Below, piece by piece: positions 30,662 to 51,204 of a DNA stretch of 64,000 nt. The notes below the pieces were generated by a model. That model ran no database searches and was not told the DNA's origin. It saw only the letters and a program-made list of their open reading frames with translations. Location of the stretch: positions 155,880 through 219,879 of the forward strand of contig CAOJEH010000001.1 in the NCBI GenBank assembly GCA_948434005.1, given 5' to 3'. The position numbers were made by a program, and so were the translations under genes. Each line of letters begins with the position of its first letter. Positions within the stretch are counted from its first letter, which is position 1. This DNA is from an uncultured Mycoplasmatota bacterium. Lineage in GTDB: Bacteria > Bacillota_I > Bacilli_A > RF39 > UBA660.

Positions 30662-30699
30662 TATACTAAATACAATATTTTAAATATTGGTAGTAGTAG

Positions 30700-30875
30700 T
30701 AATATTAATTTCTATTTAAGAGAGTTTACGCATGGTGTGAGTAAATATAGAATTAATATGAACTTGATTACCTATAAGTATTTTGGGTAAGACCGTTATC
30801 TCTATTAAGTGCATAGAAATATGAATTAAGGTGGTACCGCGATTTAATCGTCCTTATTTAAGGGCGTTTTTTTAT
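30700..30875 (+). promoter_or_regulatory. T-box riboswitch leader of the leuS operon
   Basis: AGAGAG and GGTGTGAGTA (stem I / AGUA box), F-box-like CCGTTA at 30793, T-box AATTAAGGTGGTACCGCG at 30824-30841, and terminator cgtccttatttaagggcg+T7 at 30849-30873. Confidence 0.8.
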
Positions 30876-30890
30876 TTTGAGGAGGGATTT

Positions 30891-31244
30891 ATGAGGCATA
30901 TAGTATTATTTATAATGACATATATATTTGTTTTCTTTATTTATCAAGTTTTTGTTGTAAGTAAAGCAAAAAGAAGAAATAGTAAAAAAAGACCAATAGA
31001 AGTCAATTATTTAATAAAGAAATATAATATAGATATAGGAAAACTTAACTATAAAAAACTACTTATGACAATATCTTTAGTTAGTTCTCTAGATATATCA
31101 GTAATAGTAACTGTAATTTTATTATTCGATAATTATTTACTAGAGATAGTGATAGCATTTTTGATGGTTATACCTGTAATATTAATAAGTTATAGTTTTG
31201 TAGGAAAATATTATGTAAAGAGAGGAATGATTATAAATGAGTGA
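30891..31244 (+). CDS. Small 2-3-TM membrane protein, translationally coupled to leuS
   Basis: ATG at 30891 with RBS gaggaggg. The track ORF begins upstream inside the T-box. Its stop overlaps the leuS start by 8 nt. Confidence 0.5.
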   Translation: MRHIVLFIMTYIFVFFIYQVFVVSKAKRRNSKKRPIEVNYLIKKYNIDIGKLNYKKLLMTISLVSSLDISVIVTVILLFDNYLLEIVIAFLMVIPVILISYSFVGKYYVKRGMIINE

Positions 31245-34068
31245 TTATAAAAAAATAGAGGCAAAATGGCAAAAAAAATGGGAAGATGAAAAATCTTTTG
31301 TAGCAGATAATAATAGTACGAAGGAAAAATATTATTACTTAGTGGAGTTTCCTTATCCATCAGGTGCTGGACTTCATGTTGGACATTGTAGAAGTTATAC
31401 AGCTTTGGATGCTCTAGCTAGAAAAAAGAGGATGAATGGTTATAATGTTTTATTTCCAATGGGATGGGATGCTTTTGGAGCACCTGCAGAACAATATGCT
31501 ATTAAAAATCATATTCATCCAAGTGTAGCAGTTAAAGAAAATATTAAAACCTTCAAAGGACAAGTTAAATCACTAGGTTTATCAATAGATTGGACTAGAG
31601 AGTTTTCAACAACAGATCCAGAATATTATAAGTGGACTCAATGGCAATTTTTAAAATTCTTTGAAAAGGGTATGGCTTATAAAGCAAAGAAAAATATTAA
31701 CTGGTGTCCAAATTGTAAGATGGGTCTTTCTAATGAAGATTCATCAGGTGGAGTATGTGAAAGATGTGGTCATTCTGTTGAACAAAGAGAAAAAGAACAA
31801 TGGATGCTTAGAATGAGTGATTATGCAGAAGATTTAATCAAAGGATTAGATGATACAGACTTCCAAGAAAGAATAAAAACTGCTCAAATAAATTGGATAG
31901 GTAAATCTGAAGGTGCAGAAGTTAACTTTAAAGTAAAAGAAACTAATGAAGATTTAGTAGTATATACAACAAGACCTGATACTTTATATGGGGTTACTTT
32001 TATGGTAGTTGCACCTGAACATCCTATAATTGAAAAGAATAAAAATATTATATCTAATATGGATGAAATTAATTCTTATAAAGATGCTGCTAAAAATAAA
32101 ACAGAGTTTGAAAGAACTCAAGTAAATAAAGATAAAACAGGAGTAAAAATAGAAGGATTAACTGGAATAAATCCTATTACTAAAAAAGAAATTCCAATAT
32201 ATATATCAGACTATGTAATGATGAATTATGGTACAGGGGCTATTATGGCAGTGCCTGCTCATGACGAGAGAGATTTTGAATTTGCTAATAAGTTTGGAAT
32301 TGATATAATTCCTGTAATAGAACAAATTACAGGAACTCCTAGAGATGATGAAAAGAAGAAAAACAGTATAGTTGCAGTTTTATTTGATGAGGAAAACAAT
32401 AAATATTTAACTATTAATTGGGGTAATCTAGGAGGAAGATTATTTGTAGGCGGTACAAGAAAGGATAATGAAAGTCCTCTTGAATGTGCAATAAGAGAAA
32501 TAAAAGAAGAAACAGGATATACCGATATTACTTATATGCATGATATTTTCCCTATAAATCATCATTATTATGCTCATAATAAGAACCAAGCTTATGAAAT
32601 TGAATCTACTGGATTATTATTTAAGTTAAATAGTAATAAAAAAGTAGAAGTAGAGCTTGATGATGATGAAAAGGATAATTTTAAAGTTGAATGGGTAGAT
32701 AAAAATAAAATAGAAAAAGAAGTAGTTGATGAATTACATATTACTACATTTAGAAATTTACTAAAACCTACTGCATACATAGCGGATGGTAAAATGGTTA
32801 ATTCTGATATTCTAAATGGATTAACTAACAAAAAAGATTCTATAGAAAAAATGTTAGAGTATTTAGAAGAGAATAATCTAGGAAAAAGAAAAACAAATTA
32901 TAAACTTCAAGACTGGATTTTTTCTCGTCAAAGATTTTGGGGAGAACCTATTCCTTTAGTTCATTGCAAAGATTGTGGTTGGGTTGCAGTAGATGATAAA
33001 GATTTACCTGTAACTTTACCAGAAGTAGTTAACTATGAACCTACAGATGATGGAGAAAGCCCTCTAGCAGCAATTACCGATTGGGTAAATACAACTTGTC
33101 CTAAATGTGGTAATCCTGCTAAAAGAGAAACTGATACAATGCCAAACTGGGCAGGATCTTCATGGTATTGGCTAAGATATATGGATGCTCATAATGATAA
33201 AGAATTTGCAAGCAAAGATGCTTTAAAATATTGGGGTAAACTAGACTTTTATAATGGTGGAATGGAGCACGCAACTAGACATTTATTATATGCAAGATTT
33301 TGGAACCAATTTTTATATAACAATGGATTAGTTCCTAATAAAGAACCATTTAAAACTAGAGTATCACACGGAATGATTTTAGGTGAAGGTGGCGTAAAAA
33401 TGTCAAAATCACTTGGAAATGTAATTAACCCTAATGATATGATAAAAGAGTACGGAGCAGATGCACTTCGTTGTTATGAAATGTTTATAGGAGACTATGA
33501 AAAAGAAGTAGCATGGAGTGAACAAGGACTTAATGGTTGTAAAAGATTTATAGATAAAATAGTACGTATTGGAGATAAGTTATCTAATGATACTTCATAT
33601 ACAAAAGAATTAGAAAGTATAATTCATAAAACTATTAAGAAAGTTACAGAAGATATTGATAATATGAAATTTAATACTGCTGTATCTGCTCTTATGATTC
33701 TTTTAAATAAATATGAAGAACAAGATAAAATAACTAAAAAAGACTATAGAACATTCTTACTTTTATTTAATCCAATCGCTCCTCATATAACAGAGGAACT
33801 AAATGAAAAATATGATTTAGGTGAACAATTATGTAAGAGTAGTTGGCCAACTTATGATGATGAAAAAACAATAGATGAAGAAAAAGAAATAGCTGTTCAA
33901 GTAAATGGTAAAGTACGTGCTACTATGAAAATTAGTATTAATGAAGATGAAGAAGAGATAAAGAAAAAGGCTCTAGCTTTAGAAAATGTTATAAATCATA
34001 CTAAAGATAAAGAGATTATAAAGGTAATCGTAATAAAAGGTAAGATTGTAAATATAGTAGTTAAGTAA
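31237..34068 (+). CDS. leuS: Leucyl-tRNA synthetase carrying an inserted Nudix-hydrolase-like domain
   Basis: HIGH-type motif (LHVGH), the editing-domain TTRPDT and VPAHDERDFEFA segments, NYKLQDWIFSRQRFWGEPIP, and KMSKS. 943 aa. A ~147-aa insert (nt 32323-32763) contains a perfect Nudix box GGTRKDNESPLECAIREIKEETGY. Confidence 0.9.
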   Translation: MSDYKKIEAKWQKKWEDEKSFVADNNSTKEKYYYLVEFPYPSGAGLHVGHCRSYTALDALARKKRMNGYNVLFPMGWDAFGAPAEQYAIKNHIHPSVAVKENIKTFKGQVKSLGLSIDWTREFSTTDPEYYKWTQWQFLKFFEKGMAYKAKKNINWCPNCKMGLSNEDSSGGVCERCGHSVEQREKEQWMLRMSDYAEDLIKGLDDTDFQERIKTAQINWIGKSEGAEVNFKVKETNEDLVVYTTRPDTLYGVTFMVVAPEHPIIEKNKNIISNMDEINSYKDAAKNKTEFERTQVNKDKTGVKIEGLTGINPITKKEIPIYISDYVMMNYGTGAIMAVPAHDERDFEFANKFGIDIIPVIEQITGTPRDDEKKKNSIVAVLFDEENNKYLTINWGNLGGRLFVGGTRKDNESPLECAIREIKEETGYTDITYMHDIFPINHHYYAHNKNQAYEIESTGLLFKLNSNKKVEVELDDDEKDNFKVEWVDKNKIEKEVVDELHITTFRNLLKPTAYIADGKMVNSDILNGLTNKKDSIEKMLEYLEENNLGKRKTNYKLQDWIFSRQRFWGEPIPLVHCKDCGWVAVDDKDLPVTLPEVVNYEPTDDGESPLAAITDWVNTTCPKCGNPAKRETDTMPNWAGSSWYWLRYMDAHNDKEFASKDALKYWGKLDFYNGGMEHATRHLLYARFWNQFLYNNGLVPNKEPFKTRVSHGMILGEGGVKMSKSLGNVINPNDMIKEYGADALRCYEMFIGDYEKEVAWSEQGLNGCKRFIDKIVRIGDKLSNDTSYTKELESIIHKTIKKVTEDIDNMKFNTAVSALMILLNKYEEQDKITKKDYRTFLLLFNPIAPHITEELNEKYDLGEQLCKSSWPTYDDEKTIDEEKEIAVQVNGKVRATMKISINEDEEEIKKKALALENVINHTKDKEIIKVIVIKGKIVNIVVK

Positions 34069-34102
34069 AAAAAGAAATAGTAAATAAAATATGGAGGTTT
34101 AC

Positions 34103-35317
34103 ATGAACGATCAAATAAAAGATTCATTTGTTGTTGTAAGCGATTTTCATGGAGCAGATTGGGTTATGGATAAAATTAGAAGTCATTATATTAATGAATA
34201 TGAAAAAATATTTAATCTAGGGGATATAATAGACAGAGGCGAGCAACCATTTAAACTATTATTAGACTATATGGAATTATCAAAGCAAAATCCAGATAGA
34301 GTTATTTATGTACCAGGAAATCATGATAGTTTTATATATGGTGCATATATGGCTGCAGATGAAGAACAACGTTCCAATTATAGAACCTCATTAATACAAA
34401 ACGGAGGTTTAGAAACATATAAACAAGCAGAATATTTAAGGAAAACTAATCCTAGTAAATTTAATGAATTGATAGACTGGCTTGGTAGTCAGCCTCTACA
34501 AAGAGTGCATACATATGAAAAAAAGAAATATGCATTAGCGCATGCCTTTTTTAATCAGACAATATATAATAAAAATCCCAATTATTCATTAAAAGATTAT
34601 ATGAGGGATGTACACTATCCAAAGGGTCTGAAACAAAAAGAAGCTAATATACTTTGGTTTAGAAAAAATCATCCTACTCATGGATACTATAATCCAGCAG
34701 ATTTACCGAGTAATGATTATACTATGATTATAGGTCATACCGCTAATGCAAATGATTTAGGGTTATTCAATGTAGATGTAATATGTGTAGATGGTGCAGC
34801 CAATGAAAGAAGTCAACAAACAGGAAGTTACAGTACTAGAAAGTTTGACGGTGGAAGTGGGCATATGATAACAGTTTTTGGTGAACATTTAGATACATCA
34901 AATGATGATAAAACTAAATCCCAAGAAAGACAACATTTATCTATTAATTATGTACTAAATAATTTTATAAAGGATGTAAATACCAAATTGAATAGTGAAA
35001 CATATGCGCAAAATTTGTTATATAAATATGCATTTGGTATAGCAGGTGAAAATCATATTACAGGATCATATAGAGAGTTGATTTCAAAGTCAATAGGTGT
35101 AAGTGGAATATGTAGTTATTTGGGTCTTGATATTAATTGTGTAAATGAACAAAGAAGTATATATTCTGAAGCAATAAATATGTTAAATAATAGAAATATA
35201 CAAGAAGCAAAGGATTTAATTAGTAGTACTAATAATGAAGTATTAATAGGAGAAATAAATAAGCAGATATTAAAAATGGAAACGCCTCAATCATCATCAG
35301 GACAAAGAAGAAGATAA
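34103..35317 (+). CDS. Calcineurin-like metallophosphoesterase (ApaH/PrpE-like) with a ~150-aa C-terminal extension
   Basis: DFHG, GDIIDRG and GNHD metallophosphatase motifs. Start at 34103 (MNDQ, RBS ggagg). The track ORF starts 4 codons earlier. Confidence 0.65.
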   Translation: MNDQIKDSFVVVSDFHGADWVMDKIRSHYINEYEKIFNLGDIIDRGEQPFKLLLDYMELSKQNPDRVIYVPGNHDSFIYGAYMAADEEQRSNYRTSLIQNGGLETYKQAEYLRKTNPSKFNELIDWLGSQPLQRVHTYEKKKYALAHAFFNQTIYNKNPNYSLKDYMRDVHYPKGLKQKEANILWFRKNHPTHGYYNPADLPSNDYTMIIGHTANANDLGLFNVDVICVDGAANERSQQTGSYSTRKFDGGSGHMITVFGEHLDTSNDDKTKSQERQHLSINYVLNNFIKDVNTKLNSETYAQNLLYKYAFGIAGENHITGSYRELISKSIGVSGICSYLGLDINCVNEQRSIYSEAINMLNNRNIQEAKDLISSTNNEVLIGEINKQILKMETPQSSSGQRRR

Positions 35318-35431
35318 ATTAAACAGTATATATTATAATAATGAGATTTATATATTAAAAGGAGAATTTGTTTCTCTTTTTTTCAACAATTTTTGTGGAT
35401 AAAAAATATTACTATATTTATAGGTGATATA

Positions 35432-47375: not shown

Positions 47376-47454
47376 TACTCTTTTCATTTTAGTAATATTA
47401 TGATATATTTATAATATAATTTTCAGTGATTAATTATAAGTAGTATTTTTAAAT

Positions 47455-47625
47455 ACTTTTAGAGACTTAGTGGTTGGTGCAAACTAAGATACTTAAAAAT
47501 ATGAAATACAGATTATGAGAAAAATCGTTTATCGCGTTAAGATATTAGAGGTAGCATAAGCTATAAATTAAGGTGGTACCACGAACTATTCGTCCTTATG
47601 ATAGGGATGAATAGTTTTTATTTTA
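47455..47625 (+). promoter_or_regulatory. T-box riboswitch leader of the CYTH-tyrS operon
   Basis: AGAGAC near 47463, F-box-like CGTTA near 47534, T-box AATTAAGGTGGTACCACG at 47566-47583, and a terminator (12-bp stem aactattcgtcc/gggatgaatagtt + T-run) at 47583-47625. Confidence 0.75.
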
Positions 47626-47636
47626 GGAGGGATTTT

Positions 47637-48182
47637 ATGCATACAGAATATGAAGTAAGAGTACTAGAAATTAATGAAGAAGAAATGAAAAAGAAATTAG
47701 AAGAAATAAATGCTAAGTTTGAATGGGAACATATCCAAAAACGTTATGTTTATGATTTTATTCCAAAAGAAGATAAAAAATGGATAAGATTAAGAACTAA
47801 TGGTGATAAGACAACGTTAACAATAAAAAATATTACTACATCAAGAATAGATGGAACTCAGGAATTAGAAGTTGAAGTAGATAACTTTGAAAGAACAAAT
47901 TTAATTTTGAAAGAGTTAGGATATATTCCAAAGGGATATCAAGAGAATAAAAGAAGACAATATACTCTAAATGGAGTAGAAATTGATATTGACTCTTGGC
48001 CTAATATTCCTACTTATCTAGAAATAGAAGGACCTAGTGAAGAAGCTGTTTATTATACATTAGATTTATTAGGAATTGAAAAAGAAAAGACTACTACAAA
48101 AGATGTAGATCGAATATATTTAGATTATGGATATAACTTATCAGAGATTAAAGACCTTAAATTAGAGGAGGATAGAAAATGA
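47637..48182 (+). CDS. CYTH-domain protein (CyaB/thiamine-triphosphatase-like triphosphate tunnel metalloenzyme)
   Basis: N-terminal EYEVR (ExExK-type), IRLRTNG...TLTIK, ELEVEVDNFE...LGY, and KRRQYTLNGVEIDIDSW...YLEIEG. ATG at 47637 with RBS taggaggg. Stop overlaps the tyrS start by 4 nt. Confidence 0.55.
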   Translation: MHTEYEVRVLEINEEEMKKKLEEINAKFEWEHIQKRYVYDFIPKEDKKWIRLRTNGDKTTLTIKNITTSRIDGTQELEVEVDNFERTNLILKELGYIPKGYQENKRRQYTLNGVEIDIDSWPNIPTYLEIEGPSEEAVYYTLDLLGIEKEKTTTKDVDRIYLDYGYNLSEIKDLKLEEDRK

Positions 48183-49411
48183 AAATATATGAAGATTTAA
48201 AATGGAGAGGTTTAATTAAGGATACAGCAGGAGAAGATATTGCTGATAAATTAAATCAAGGTGGATTAACCTTTTATATTGGAGCCGATCCTTCAGCCGA
48301 TAGCTTACATATTGGACAACTTCCTACTTTCTTAGTAGCTGAAAGATTAAGAAGAGCAGGACATAAGCCAATTATTTTAGTAGGTGGCGCAACTGGTCGT
48401 GTTGGAGATCCTAGAGGTACTAAAGAAAGAGAAAAATCTGATGTAAAAGTTGTAGAGCACAATTTTGAAAAAATAAAACTACAAATGAAGAAATTATTTG
48501 GAGAAGATACTTTAGTAGTTAACAATTATGATTGGTTTAAAGAGTATAATTTTATTGATTTTTTAAGAGATGTTGGTAAATATGTAAATGTCTCATATAT
48601 GATTAATAAAGACTTAGTAAAAAGACAAATGGAGTCAGGGATTTCTTATGCAGAGTTTTCTTATATGTTAATACAAGGCTATGACTTTAAATATATTCAT
48701 GACCATTATGGAGCTACATTACAATTTGGTGGATCTGATCAATGGGGTAACTTAACTACAGGGATAGAATTAATTAGAAAGTTAAATGATGAAGTAGTAT
48801 ATGCTTTCTCTTGCCCACTAACTCTTGATGCAAGTGGAAAAAAGATTGGAAAGAGTGAAGGAAATGCTTTATGGTTAGATAAAGAGAAGACATCTAGCTA
48901 TGAATTATATCAATATTTAATTAACTTTGAAGATGTAATGATGGAAACATATTTAAAAGTATATACATTCTTATCAAAAGAAGAAATAGAAAATATTTTA
49001 AATGAACATAGTAAAGCTCCAGAAAAAAGATTAGCTCAAAAAACATTAGCAGAAGAAGTAATAACTTATTTACATGGAGAATCATCATATCATGAAGCAG
49101 TAGAAATAAGTGAAGCTTTATTTAGTGGAGATATAAAAAGATTAAACGGTAAAGAAATAGAAATGGCATTTAAAGGATTAACTCCAAAGACTATAGAAGA
49201 AGATATTAATATAGTTGATTTATTAGTTGAAAAAGAAATATGTAAAAGTAAAAGAGAAGCTCGTGAATTTATTTCTAATGGTTCAATCACAGTTAATGGA
49301 GATAAAGTAACAGATAATGGATTTAATATTACAAAAAGTGTAGCTATAGAACAAAAATATATAGTTATAAGACGTGGAAAAAAGAAATATTACATAGTAA
49401 CGTTTGAATAA
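48179..49411 (+). CDS. tyrS: Tyrosyl-tRNA synthetase
   Basis: HIG-type motif (SLHIGQL), KIGKS (KMSKS-type), and a C-terminal S4-like domain. 410 aa. Confidence 0.9.
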   Translation: MKIYEDLKWRGLIKDTAGEDIADKLNQGGLTFYIGADPSADSLHIGQLPTFLVAERLRRAGHKPIILVGGATGRVGDPRGTKEREKSDVKVVEHNFEKIKLQMKKLFGEDTLVVNNYDWFKEYNFIDFLRDVGKYVNVSYMINKDLVKRQMESGISYAEFSYMLIQGYDFKYIHDHYGATLQFGGSDQWGNLTTGIELIRKLNDEVVYAFSCPLTLDASGKKIGKSEGNALWLDKEKTSSYELYQYLINFEDVMMETYLKVYTFLSKEEIENILNEHSKAPEKRLAQKTLAEEVITYLHGESSYHEAVEISEALFSGDIKRLNGKEIEMAFKGLTPKTIEEDINIVDLLVEKEICKSKREAREFISNGSITVNGDKVTDNGFNITKSVAIEQKYIVIRRGKKKYYIVTFE

Positions 49412-49450
49412 TTATAAAAATAGATACAGTTTATTATAATAGGTGATAAT

Positions 49451-50671
49451 ATGAAAAGTAATTATAAAAGAATAATAAAAGCAGTCGTTATTATATGTAT
49501 CATTGTTCTAATAATAGATATATCATATCTTGTTTATAAAAAAATAGTTAATAAACCTAAAGAAACTTCTTTTGATAGTATTAATTCCTTTGAGGTTATA
49601 GATGAAGGTTATATATCAGTAGGTAGTAACAATAATAATAAAAATAAGTATGAGAAAGCTAAAATAACTAAGTATAATAATAAATTAGAAAAAGTATGGG
49701 AAAAACTATATAATAAGAAATATAATAGTAGTTATTTTGGTATAAAACAAGATAATGACTACTTTATAGCAGTAGGAGATTATGAGTCTAATAGTGAAGA
49801 AAATAAAGATAGTGTAAGATCTGCTTTGATTGTAAAATATGATAGTGAGGGAAAAATACTAAATGAGAAGAAATTTCAAGTATTAGGTGATTCTAAATTT
49901 ACTAACTTACTAGTAATACCAGATGGTTATTTAGTAATTGGTCAAAGTATTTATGAGAATATGACGTTAGGATTATCAGACGAAGGTGGAGCTTTCTTAA
50001 TAAAATATGATAAAGATTTAAATGAAATATGGAAAAGTAATTATGGAGGCTCTAAGTCTGCAATATATAATGATTTAATAGTAGTAGATAATTACATTTA
50101 TGCAGTAGGTAAAGATGCTACAAATACAGGAATAATATCAAAGTATAATATGAATGGTGAAAGACAAAAGACTACTACCTATAGCTATACTGATAGATTT
50201 GGTTTTACTGGTATTGTAAGTATTGATAATAATTTATATGTGGTGGGTGCTAAAAAAGTTACTGAAGATAAAAATGATTATGATACAGATGGACTTATAG
50301 TTAAATATGATTTGGACTGTAATAAATTAAAAGAAACTACTTATAAAGGAAAAGGAATAGATCGCTTTAATAAGTTAATCTCAGATAATAATAATCTTGC
50401 AATAGTAGGTCAAACAGGTATTTATAATAAAGATAAATCAACAGATAAAATAAATGTATTTTCTTATAATGGTATATTTGCAATCTATAGTAAAAATTTA
50501 GATAAAATAAAACTAGATAATTATGGGACTGATATTGATGACTATTTTACAGATATAAAGAAAATAAGTAATAAATATATTGTGAGTGGATACGGAGTGT
50601 ATGAAGAAAATAGTTATATATCAAAACTAATTGAATATAAAACATCTGGTAAATTGATAGGAGAAAGCTAA
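49451..50671 (+). CDS. Membrane-anchored protein with seven degenerate ~45-aa repeats (predicted beta-propeller)
   Basis: N-terminal TM. Seven repeats of the type (Y/L)xx(V/A)(G/S)....(15-20 aa)....(I/L)(V/I)KYD..G (e.g. YFIAVGD...LIVKYDSEGK, YIYAVGK...ISKYNMNGE, LYVVGAK...LIVKYDLDCN). Confidence 0.45.
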   Translation: MKSNYKRIIKAVVIICIIVLIIDISYLVYKKIVNKPKETSFDSINSFEVIDEGYISVGSNNNNKNKYEKAKITKYNNKLEKVWEKLYNKKYNSSYFGIKQDNDYFIAVGDYESNSEENKDSVRSALIVKYDSEGKILNEKKFQVLGDSKFTNLLVIPDGYLVIGQSIYENMTLGLSDEGGAFLIKYDKDLNEIWKSNYGGSKSAIYNDLIVVDNYIYAVGKDATNTGIISKYNMNGERQKTTTYSYTDRFGFTGIVSIDNNLYVVGAKKVTEDKNDYDTDGLIVKYDLDCNKLKETTYKGKGIDRFNKLISDNNNLAIVGQTGIYNKDKSTDKINVFSYNGIFAIYSKNLDKIKLDNYGTDIDDYFTDIKKISNKYIVSGYGVYEENSYISKLIEYKTSGKLIGES

Positions 50672-51204
50672 TGAAAATTGTGTTAGTAAGACATGGGAAA
50701 ACGGATTATAATGTTGAATGTAAAACACAAGGTAGAATAAATATTCCTTTAAATGATTCAGGAAGAAGAGAAGTTCAAAAATTAAAATATAAGATGAAGG
50801 ATATGGATTTTGATATATGTTTTTCCTCTCCCTTAATTAGAGCGGTAGAAACAGCTATGATTTTAGTAGGAGATAGAGTAGAGATAAAAATAGATGATAG
50901 ATTAATTGAAAGAAATATGGGTAATCAAGAAGGTATGCCATATAAAGACTATGATGGGAATGCACATTGGGATTATAATCTTAATTTAGATGATAATGGT
51001 ATTGAACCTGTACAAGATATAATAAAAAGAGCATCAGATTTTATAGATTATTTAAAAGAAAATTATAATGATAAAGATATATTAATAGTTTCGCATGGTG
51101 CAACTATAAGAGCACTACATCATATACTTCATAATACTGATTTAAATAGTAATTTATCAGATTTTAGTATAGGAAATTGTTATACAGAAACAATAATAAT
51201 ATAA
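50671..51204 (+). CDS. Short histidine phosphatase (PGM superfamily), paralog C
   Basis: IVLVRHGKT (RHG) and IVSHGA. 177 aa. Its ATG overlaps the stop of the upstream repeat protein (taATGa). Confidence 0.7.
   Translation: MKIVLVRHGKTDYNVECKTQGRINIPLNDSGRREVQKLKYKMKDMDFDICFSSPLIRAVETAMILVGDRVEIKIDDRLIERNMGNQEGMPYKDYDGNAHWDYNLNLDDNGIEPVQDIIKRASDFIDYLKENYNDKDILIVSHGATIRALHHILHNTDLNSNLSDFSIGNCYTETIII

Follow-up and report, generated by a model that had tools for sequence, protein, structure and literature searches.

Control of aminoacyl-tRNA synthetase (aaRS) genes by T-box leaders is textbook material. Attachment of such enzymes to a membrane is known from cyanobacteria, where the CAAD domain anchors leucyl-tRNA synthetase (LeuRS) as well as other class I synthetases to the thylakoids (PMC4893482). 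The present analysis concerns a leuS locus in DNA of an uncultured Mycoplasmatota bacterium (RF39/UBA660 lineage; assembly GCA_948434005.1, contig CAOJEH010000001.1, positions 155,880 to 219,879 of the forward strand), a stretch of 64,000 nucleotides referred to as the window, in which a gene for a small membrane protein lies between a T-box leader and leuS, and a gene for a metallophosphoesterase (MPE) follows leuS. A T-box-leuS unit is in itself already known; new is the conserved, coupled and unannotated membrane-protein family inside this unit. The reading that we regard as reasonably probable is that the locus constitutes one transcription unit under a Leu T-box, that leuS and the membrane-protein gene are a conserved pair, and that MPE is a passenger. 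To our knowledge, a conserved membrane-protein gene located between riboswitch and synthetase in hundreds of gut Bacilli lineages has not been described.

A first-pass annotation, made from the letters of the window, had named a complete T-box leader comprising AGAGAG, GGTGTGAGTA, F-box, T-box and a terminator with T7, a 117-aa protein with two to three transmembrane (TM) segments whose gene overlaps the leuS start by 8 nt, leuS with a Nudix insert, and a calcineurin-like phosphoesterase with GDIIDRG and GNHD motifs. All of these were recovered in their places, the membrane protein being resolved into three TM helices. Its presence in the operon, for which the annotation had offered no explanation, was found to be conserved beside leuS and constitutes the notable part of the unit. 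The features in question are as follows.

30683..30873, + strand: Leu-specific T-box leader (Rfam RF00230, terminator scan, and GAA-CUN-R in relatives)
30734-30743, + strand: GGTGTGAGTA element of the leader, located in the sequence
30793-30798, + strand: F-box CCGTTA, located in the sequence
30824-30841, + strand: T-box sequence AATTAAGGTGGTACCGCG, located in the sequence
30849-30866, + strand: terminator hairpin CGTCCTTATTTAAGGGCG of the leader, followed by T7 at 30867-30873 (terminator scan)
30891..31244, + strand: small membrane protein, 117 aa (open reading frame, family profile and structure model)
Within this protein (AlphaFold model): TM1, about aa 2-23; short helix of the loop, aa 36-45; TM2, aa 54-76; TM3, aa 82-110
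31237..34068, + strand: leuS, leucine--tRNA ligase, 943 aa (TIGR00396)
Roughly 32368-32718, + strand: Nudix domain in LeuRS, aa 378-494 (Pfam PF00293, 39.1 bits against a gathering threshold of 21.1)
34103..35317 (alternative ATG at 34091), + strand: PPP/calcineurin-like MPE, 404 aa (Pfam PF00149)
35357..35384, + strand: weak hairpin with U-run (fold of 35318-35395)

Conservation of the pair was assessed in 80 related loci, which were obtained by a LeuRS-based scan with one genome per species and stem mostly from metagenome-assembled genomes of uncultured Bacilli/Tenericutes, apparently of the RF39/UBA660 type, in addition to a few Candidate Phyla Radiation (CPR) bacteria; loci are cited by our own numbers, preceded by L. 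Homologues of the membrane open reading frame (ORF) were located by tblastn and a family hidden Markov model (HMM), while the Nudix domain, MPE and flanking genes were assigned by Pfam and equivalog cut-offs were taken from NCBIfam. Exactly one homologue of the membrane ORF was present in 64 of the 80 loci, on the leuS strand and, except in L040, immediately upstream of leuS, irrespective of whether the LeuRS of that locus carries the Nudix insert. The family HMM detected a single copy per locus and no further one in the 64-kb window. A T-box core precedes the membrane ORF by about 60 nt in 47 of 60 loci, and in three loci devoid of the ORF (L058, L072 and L076) only 56-81 nt separate it from leuS; by this spacing, the ORF is an insertion between riboswitch and synthetase that has been retained in the clade. 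Moreover, the pair persists in a different neighbourhood in L094 (rpoA-rplQ-...-T-box-TM-leuS) and in the order T-box-GNAT-TM-leuS in L096, each with a T-box of Rfam grade. Judged by this gene order, the genes of the membrane protein and LeuRS are a conserved pair throughout an entire clade of uncultured gut bacteria belonging to the Bacilli. In the variant operon of L096 (3298-4766), which recurs in L097, the gene of a GNAT acetyltransferase is located between a T-box of 130 bits and the membrane ORF, the start of which it overlaps by 13 nt.

The two genes are also tightly joined at the level of translation signals. The membrane ORF starts with the ATG at 30891 behind the Shine-Dalgarno sequence GAGGAGG (30879-30885), and its stop codon at 31242-31244 lies beyond the leuS ATG at 31237. 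Of 59 homologues, 49 have a GGAGG-like site ahead of their start codon, and where the distance between ORF end and leuS start was computed (59 homologues) the genes overlap or abut in almost all cases, by -8 nt in most and otherwise by -4, +1, +2 or -20 nt, the one exception being a gap of +257 nt in L040. In addition, the C-terminal Lys-Lys-Gly (KKG) codons of the membrane protein (AAGAAAGGA-like; 31205-31236 in the window) simultaneously serve as the ribosome-binding site (RBS) of leuS. By this arrangement, the membrane ORF and leuS are translationally coupled, with RBS and start of leuS contained in the end of the membrane ORF.

The family behind this ORF is large and nameless. A profile search against 1.84 billion representatives yielded 674 clusters at 50% identity with E <= 1e-3, including 357 at E <= 1e-10, and the best 150 representatives listed all measure 73-189 aa; a word-indexed search returned 325 clusters at 90% identity, all of which are unnamed or 'hypothetical' and Pfam-free. 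The protein of the window has no match in Pfam (E <= 0.01), NCBIfam, PHROG or PADLOC. Weak Pfam matches across the family are heterogeneous and concern families with a single TM segment plus a basic stretch, and CAAD is absent from the 25 most frequent of them shown for 109 members (E <= 1). The helices listed above stem from an AlphaFold model with a mean predicted local distance difference test (pLDDT) of 88 and a predicted template-modelling score (pTM) of 0.76. Across 109 diverse members, which underlie all residue and topology statistics, the mean number of Lys plus Arg is 9.9 for loop 1 and 4.9 for the C-terminal tail, compared with 0.4-0.5 for the N-terminus and for loop 2, and hence the N-terminus is placed outside and the C-terminus inside, the basic loop 1 being cytoplasmic. 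The most conserved residues are Y18, E37, Y45 and Y101. E37 and Y45 reside in the cytoplasmic loop, and model and topology suggest that Y18 and Y101 are located close to where TM1 and TM3 reach the cytoplasm. Of the acidic residues, only D68 lies within the membrane, and just 52 of the 109 members retain it. Conserved loop residues together with a poorly kept D68 make an interaction on the cytoplasmic side more likely than a role as transport pathway.

Upstream of the pair, the leader matches RF00230 at 30683-30858 (+) with 95.2 bits (gathering threshold 93, E 1.3e-19) over the full length of the model (1-219), so that a covariance-model scan bears out the T-box assignment. Its Stem I contains AGAGAG at 30719-30724 as well as a distal GGTG element, and the conserved T-box sequence together with the intrinsic terminator provides the antiterminator/terminator alternative by which members of this class are recognised. 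The specifier is the leucine codon CUU at 30763-30765, embedded in GAA-CUU-G (30760-30766). In about 50 related leaders this segment always reads GAA-CUN-R, where the codon is mostly CUU (CUC in both L055 and L058, CUA in L065) and the next base is G or A, which fits a Leu CUN codon plus a conserved purine. An alternative register, UUG-A, is excluded, since it would yield serine or stop codons in those relatives that carry CUC-G, CUC-A or CUA-G.

At the other end of the unit, no terminator-like hairpin separates leuS from MPE: the 34-nt spacer folds with -2.2 kcal/mol (z -0.56), and the first hairpin with a U-run after leuS is encountered only past MPE, at about 35357-35384, where the transcription unit probably ends. 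Since there is no terminator within these 34 nt, MPE has an RBS of its own and the first U-run hairpin comes only after it, MPE probably shares the leuS transcript in this species. The MPE start had originally been placed 22 nt past the leuS stop; this holds for the first ATG at 34091, whereas the ATG at 34103, 34 nt past the stop, is the likelier start, as it lies behind GGAGG (34093-34097) and is also called in metagenome assemblies.

The position of MPE itself is peculiar to this species. Behind the leuS stop, L007, L035 and L037 have a good terminator (with z -3.6 for L037), then the box CAACAATTTTTGTGGATAAAA, which is most distinct in L007 and L035, and finally cse60. The window has this box as well (35384-35410), located past the weak hairpin that trails MPE and ahead of cse60. 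From this shared order it follows that MPE was inserted downstream of the leuS stop and ahead of the ancestral terminator region. In general, the position after leuS is, by comparison of loci, a variable slot: across 51 loci (within L007-L086) the first gene 3' of leuS falls into at least 29 unrelated clusters, which include RNase HII, D-Tyr-tRNA deacylase (Dtd), UDG, tryptophanyl-tRNA synthetase (TrpRS), a CDP-alcohol phosphatidyltransferase, a zinc-ribbon protein and several Pfam-negative unknowns, some of them 0-30 nt from the leuS stop or overlapping leuS. No MPE homologue was detected by tblastn near leuS in any of the 80 related loci. Likewise, in the nearest relative that was found (L099/L100), whose membrane protein is 81% identical and whose LeuRS is the same 943-aa Nudix-containing form, leuS is directly followed by cse60, with no MPE beside it. 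Within this data set, MPE adjoins leuS only in the present species and is, on these grounds, an accessory passenger and not part of a conserved module. A mobile origin was considered and set aside, as MPE shows no compositional signal (G+C 0.291 versus 0.295 for leuS, with similar G+C at third codon positions) and its PADLOC match is only marginal. As a separate matter, the CAACAATTTTTGTGGATAAAA box between the terminator of the leuS unit and cse60, shared by the window and at least two related species, might act as promoter or regulator site of this sporulation gene.

Taken together, these elements suggest the following course of events. Uncharged tRNA-Leu would allow the antiterminator to form, leading to read-through into the downstream genes. 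The first product would be the three-helix membrane protein, oriented N-out/C-in, with a basic cytoplasmic loop that holds the best-conserved residues of the family; leuS would be translated next, coupled through the RBS and start inside the membrane ORF, and, in this species only, the PPP-fold MPE would come third. Co-made with LeuRS, the membrane protein might bind the enzyme via its conserved cytoplasmic helix and basic tail, which would hold part of leucine charging at the membrane or modulate charging, as CAAD does for the cyanobacterial LeuRS. That the membrane protein is thus a dedicated, separately encoded partner of LeuRS with a tethering or regulating role is put forward, by analogy, as a tentative proposal. 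An interaction with LeuRS is the most economical assumption because of the overlap coupling, the persistence of the pair through rearrangement, the single copy per locus, nearly always right before leuS, and conservation that centres on a cytoplasmic helix and not on polar residues within the membrane.

Several observations weigh against this picture. Nine Firmicute-like relatives that lack the membrane ORF keep a normal leuS, and the membrane protein is therefore dispensable for LeuRS function as such. No fusion of membrane protein and LeuRS occurs among the best 150 family representatives listed, and a Foldseek search of the membrane-protein model against the PDB gave no informative match. 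The conservation of the KKG codons may partly reflect constraint at the nucleotide level, imposed by the RBS of leuS, and in compact genomes functionally unrelated neighbours can be translationally coupled as well. With respect to the extent of the transcript, the first-pass annotation had named a terminator or a separate promoter between leuS and MPE as counter-evidence; the terminator is absent, as described above, while promoter-like matches occur at chance frequency, so that MPE may have an internal promoter.

Some of these points lend themselves to another account, in which the membrane protein has a role unrelated to leucine or LeuRS and owes its position to historical accident and to its 3' end carrying the RBS and start of leuS. 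The family evolves fast (median identity 38%, compared with 69% for LeuRS), the KKG codons double as the leuS RBS, and the ORF is absent in relatives whose leuS is visibly unchanged. Nevertheless, the pair was kept in 64 of 80 species and has withstood the rearranged flank of L094 and the GNAT insertion of L096, and the family occurs away from leuS only in one chimeric-looking contig, all of which makes this account unlikely, though it is the strongest of the alternatives. The contig in question, L098 (1-2283), combines a T-box (57 bits) and an ORF of the membrane family, followed after about 570 nt by the gene of a Trp/Tyr-type permease, leuS being absent. It measures 2.3 kb at 1.8x coverage, and its composition shifts within the ORF, the last ~70 residues of which weakly match YfiO/BamD. 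Owing to the low coverage and the change in composition it was set aside as a probable chimeric assembly; if genuine, it would be the sole instance of a family member detected apart from leuS.

Somewhat less probable still is a function in uptake or export of leucine or branched-chain amino acids, either as an oligomeric mini-transporter or as an accessory subunit. T-box control of cognate transporters is documented, e.g. for the Leu T-box before yvbW (PMC2494555). In addition, the family possesses three TM helices, and the hosts appear to be gut Bacilli with reduced genomes, which are assumed to be probable importers of amino acids. On the other hand, the family has no conserved polar or charged residues within the membrane, as illustrated by the scattered retention of D68, and its conservation is centred on the cytoplasmic loop. 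Pfam revealed no similarity to AzlD, LIVCS or other transporter families, NCBIfam and PDB fold comparison were equally negative for AzlD and other small amino-acid transport subunits, and no transporter gene is a conserved neighbour.

The first-pass annotation had favoured a further explanation, namely that the Nudix-containing LeuRS and an MPE of the ApaH/PrpE type form a co-regulated unit for the clearance of diadenosine tetraphosphate (Ap4A) or further dinucleoside polyphosphates that the synthetase produces, adjusted to the charging of tRNA-Leu. As for the first component, LeuRS scores 941 bits against TIGR00396, well above the equivalog cut-off of 548.4, and Pfam recognises tRNA-synt_1_2 at aa 219-372 followed by NUDIX at aa 378-494. 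The insert contains an intact Nudix box, GTRKDNESPLECAIREIKEETGY, from aa 406 onwards, which matches GX5EX7REUXEEXGU perfectly, and an alignment of insertion sites places it directly after the CP1 editing domain. Its distribution is patchy: about 22 related Bacilli species carry it, while LeuRSs that are up to 85% identical (L032-L037) cleanly lack it at the same junction (loci given for the patchy insert: L007-L026, L043, L050; L027, L028, L031, L038). In CPR/Patescibacteria (Paceibacterota, Zambryskibacteria and Saccharibacteria), LeuRSs have a Nudix domain at this very position, again with its box intact. The literature searched yielded no paper on the LeuRS-Nudix fusion. An apparent LeuRS of 1336 aa in L061 proved to be an artefact of ORF extension.

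The second component, MPE, matches PF00149 with 39.5 bits (gathering threshold 21.5) and displays the motifs SDFHG, GDIIDRG, GNHD and GH. An alignment of 74 homologues shows conservation of D14, H16, D41, D44, R45, N73, H74, D75, H147 and H212, so that all metal ligands of the PPP fold are kept. The catalytic domain spans about aa 1-265 of a model with pLDDT 83 and is followed by a helical, poorly conserved C-terminal region. An assignment to the ApaH/PrpE type is not borne out by these data. The scores of MPE remain far below the cut-offs of the ApaH equivalogs (27.8 bits versus 176 for NF001204 and 18.2 versus 222.85 for TIGR00668) and of the PrpE equivalog NF010148 (16.8 versus 340). Its best profile match is a NinI/lambda-like Ser/Thr phosphatase (phrog_246, E 1.1e-14, aa 11-214), PrpA (NF008516) reaching only 20 bits versus 326, and by sequence Shewanella-type protein phosphatases in the PDB match with E 0.01 versus ~0.9 for ApaH. 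In Foldseek, ApaH, lambda phosphatase, SapH, PnkP, PP5 and RLPH2 perform about equally (E 3e-7 to 1e-5), lambda phosphatase at E 6.6e-7 being similar to ApaH. Homologues of MPE share at most 46% identity over the catalytic domain, vary in their C-termini (270-700 aa) and reside in unrelated gene contexts.

What speaks for an Ap4A-clearing unit is the probable presence of MPE on a T-box-controlled transcript in this species, the fold match to the Ap4A hydrolases ApaH and SapH (E 3e-7 to 1e-6), a weak NCBIfam match to ApaH, the intact Nudix box, and the fact that the tyrS operon of the window also carries phosphohydrolase-type genes, CYTH and His_Phos_1. These points are outweighed by the absence of MPE beside leuS in all 80 species and in the nearest relative with the same Nudix-LeuRS, by the unrelated genes that occupy the slot after leuS elsewhere and the unrelated contexts of the MPE homologues, and by phosphatases such as lambda phosphatase, PnkP, PP5 and RLPH2 matching as well as ApaH does. 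The presence of the Nudix insert, moreover, does not track with MPE. Since the three supposed parts co-occur only in this species and MPE is not assignable to ApaH/PrpE, the module is unsupported, and we consider it very improbable. Consequently, annotating MPE as an Ap4A hydrolase, or as a member of an alarmone module, is not warranted.

Finally, the notion that the small ORF is no gene but an open frame that arose by chance in AT-rich leader sequence, for which no more can be cited than its database annotation as 'hypothetical protein', is effectively refuted by the comparative data, since its strong RBS, a frame, length and topology conserved across 64 species, the size of the family (674 clusters) and a confident structure model indicate that the membrane ORF is a real gene.

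The wider surroundings of the unit comprise, according to Pfam, a GH31 glycosidase upstream as well as cse60 and a SpoVB/MurJ-like gene downstream, and several assemblies of gut metagenomes contain identical copies of the window locus. The nearest relative carries a Pfam-negative ORF of 584 aa (L099, 9494-11248) in the interval from cse60 to the SpoVB-like gene, which is empty in the window; this constitutes a second variable insertion point in the leuS neighbourhood. A 117-aa ORF before argS in L087 was considered as a relative of the membrane protein and rejected, as it bears no resemblance to it; from its appearance, we take it to be a soluble protein of the DUF1934/YwiB type.

The window also contains a second aaRS operon with a coupled upstream gene and phosphohydrolase-type genes (47417-51204). 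Here, a T-box of 99.8 bits with the specifier UAC (Tyr; GAA-A-UAC-A) precedes an ORF with a CYTH (triphosphate tunnel) domain, whose likely ATG at 47637 lies behind AGGAGGG and whose end overlaps the start of tyrS by 4 nt (48179-48182); tyrS is followed by a Pfam-negative protein of 406 aa and a His_Phos_1 phosphatase.

As to its significance, the analysis replaces an attractive but unsupported alarmone-module story, with MPE as a lineage-specific passenger. If the membrane protein does bind LeuRS, membrane-localised tRNA charging would extend beyond the cyanobacteria. It would be the first case outside the cyanobacterial CAAD-containing aaRSs, and also the first with a separate subunit as anchor, translationally coupled to its synthetase and controlled by tRNA-Leu. 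This would, in addition, provide a handle on the organisation of translation in uncultured, probably amino-acid-dependent gut bacteria.

In comparison with known systems, MPE is an ordinary accessory gene. Its product shares with the PPP phosphoesterases of bacteria and phages (lambda phosphatase/NinI, PrpA/PrpB, Shelph/RLPH2, ApaH, PrpE, SapH and the phosphatase domain of PnkP) the core, the D-x-H, GDxxDRG, GNHD, H and GH motifs and a helical insert after GNHD, but is at most 18% identical to any solved member and bears an extra helical C-terminal region of about 140 aa. The LeuRS insert possesses the canonical box of the Nudix hydrolases (PF00293), though it is embedded in a synthetase right after the editing domain, a site shared with the LeuRSs of CPR/Patescibacteria. 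The leader corresponds to that of a T-box-controlled leuS of Firmicutes (RF00230, e.g. the Bacillus subtilis leuS leader) with regard to the Leu CUN codon plus purine, the competing antiterminator and terminator and the aaRS target, whereas here and in most of the clade a coupled membrane-protein gene is positioned between leader and leuS. Cyanobacterial CAAD, a CURT1 homologue, likewise represents a small helical membrane module that goes with LeuRS; it brings charging activity to a membrane (PMC4893482) and provides a functional analogy for the tether hypothesis. However, CAAD comprises two TM helices and a coiled coil, is located inside the synthetase polypeptide and is restricted to cyanobacteria and their thylakoids, while the protein of the window is a separate three-helix polypeptide without detectable CAAD similarity, whose binding to LeuRS is hypothetical.

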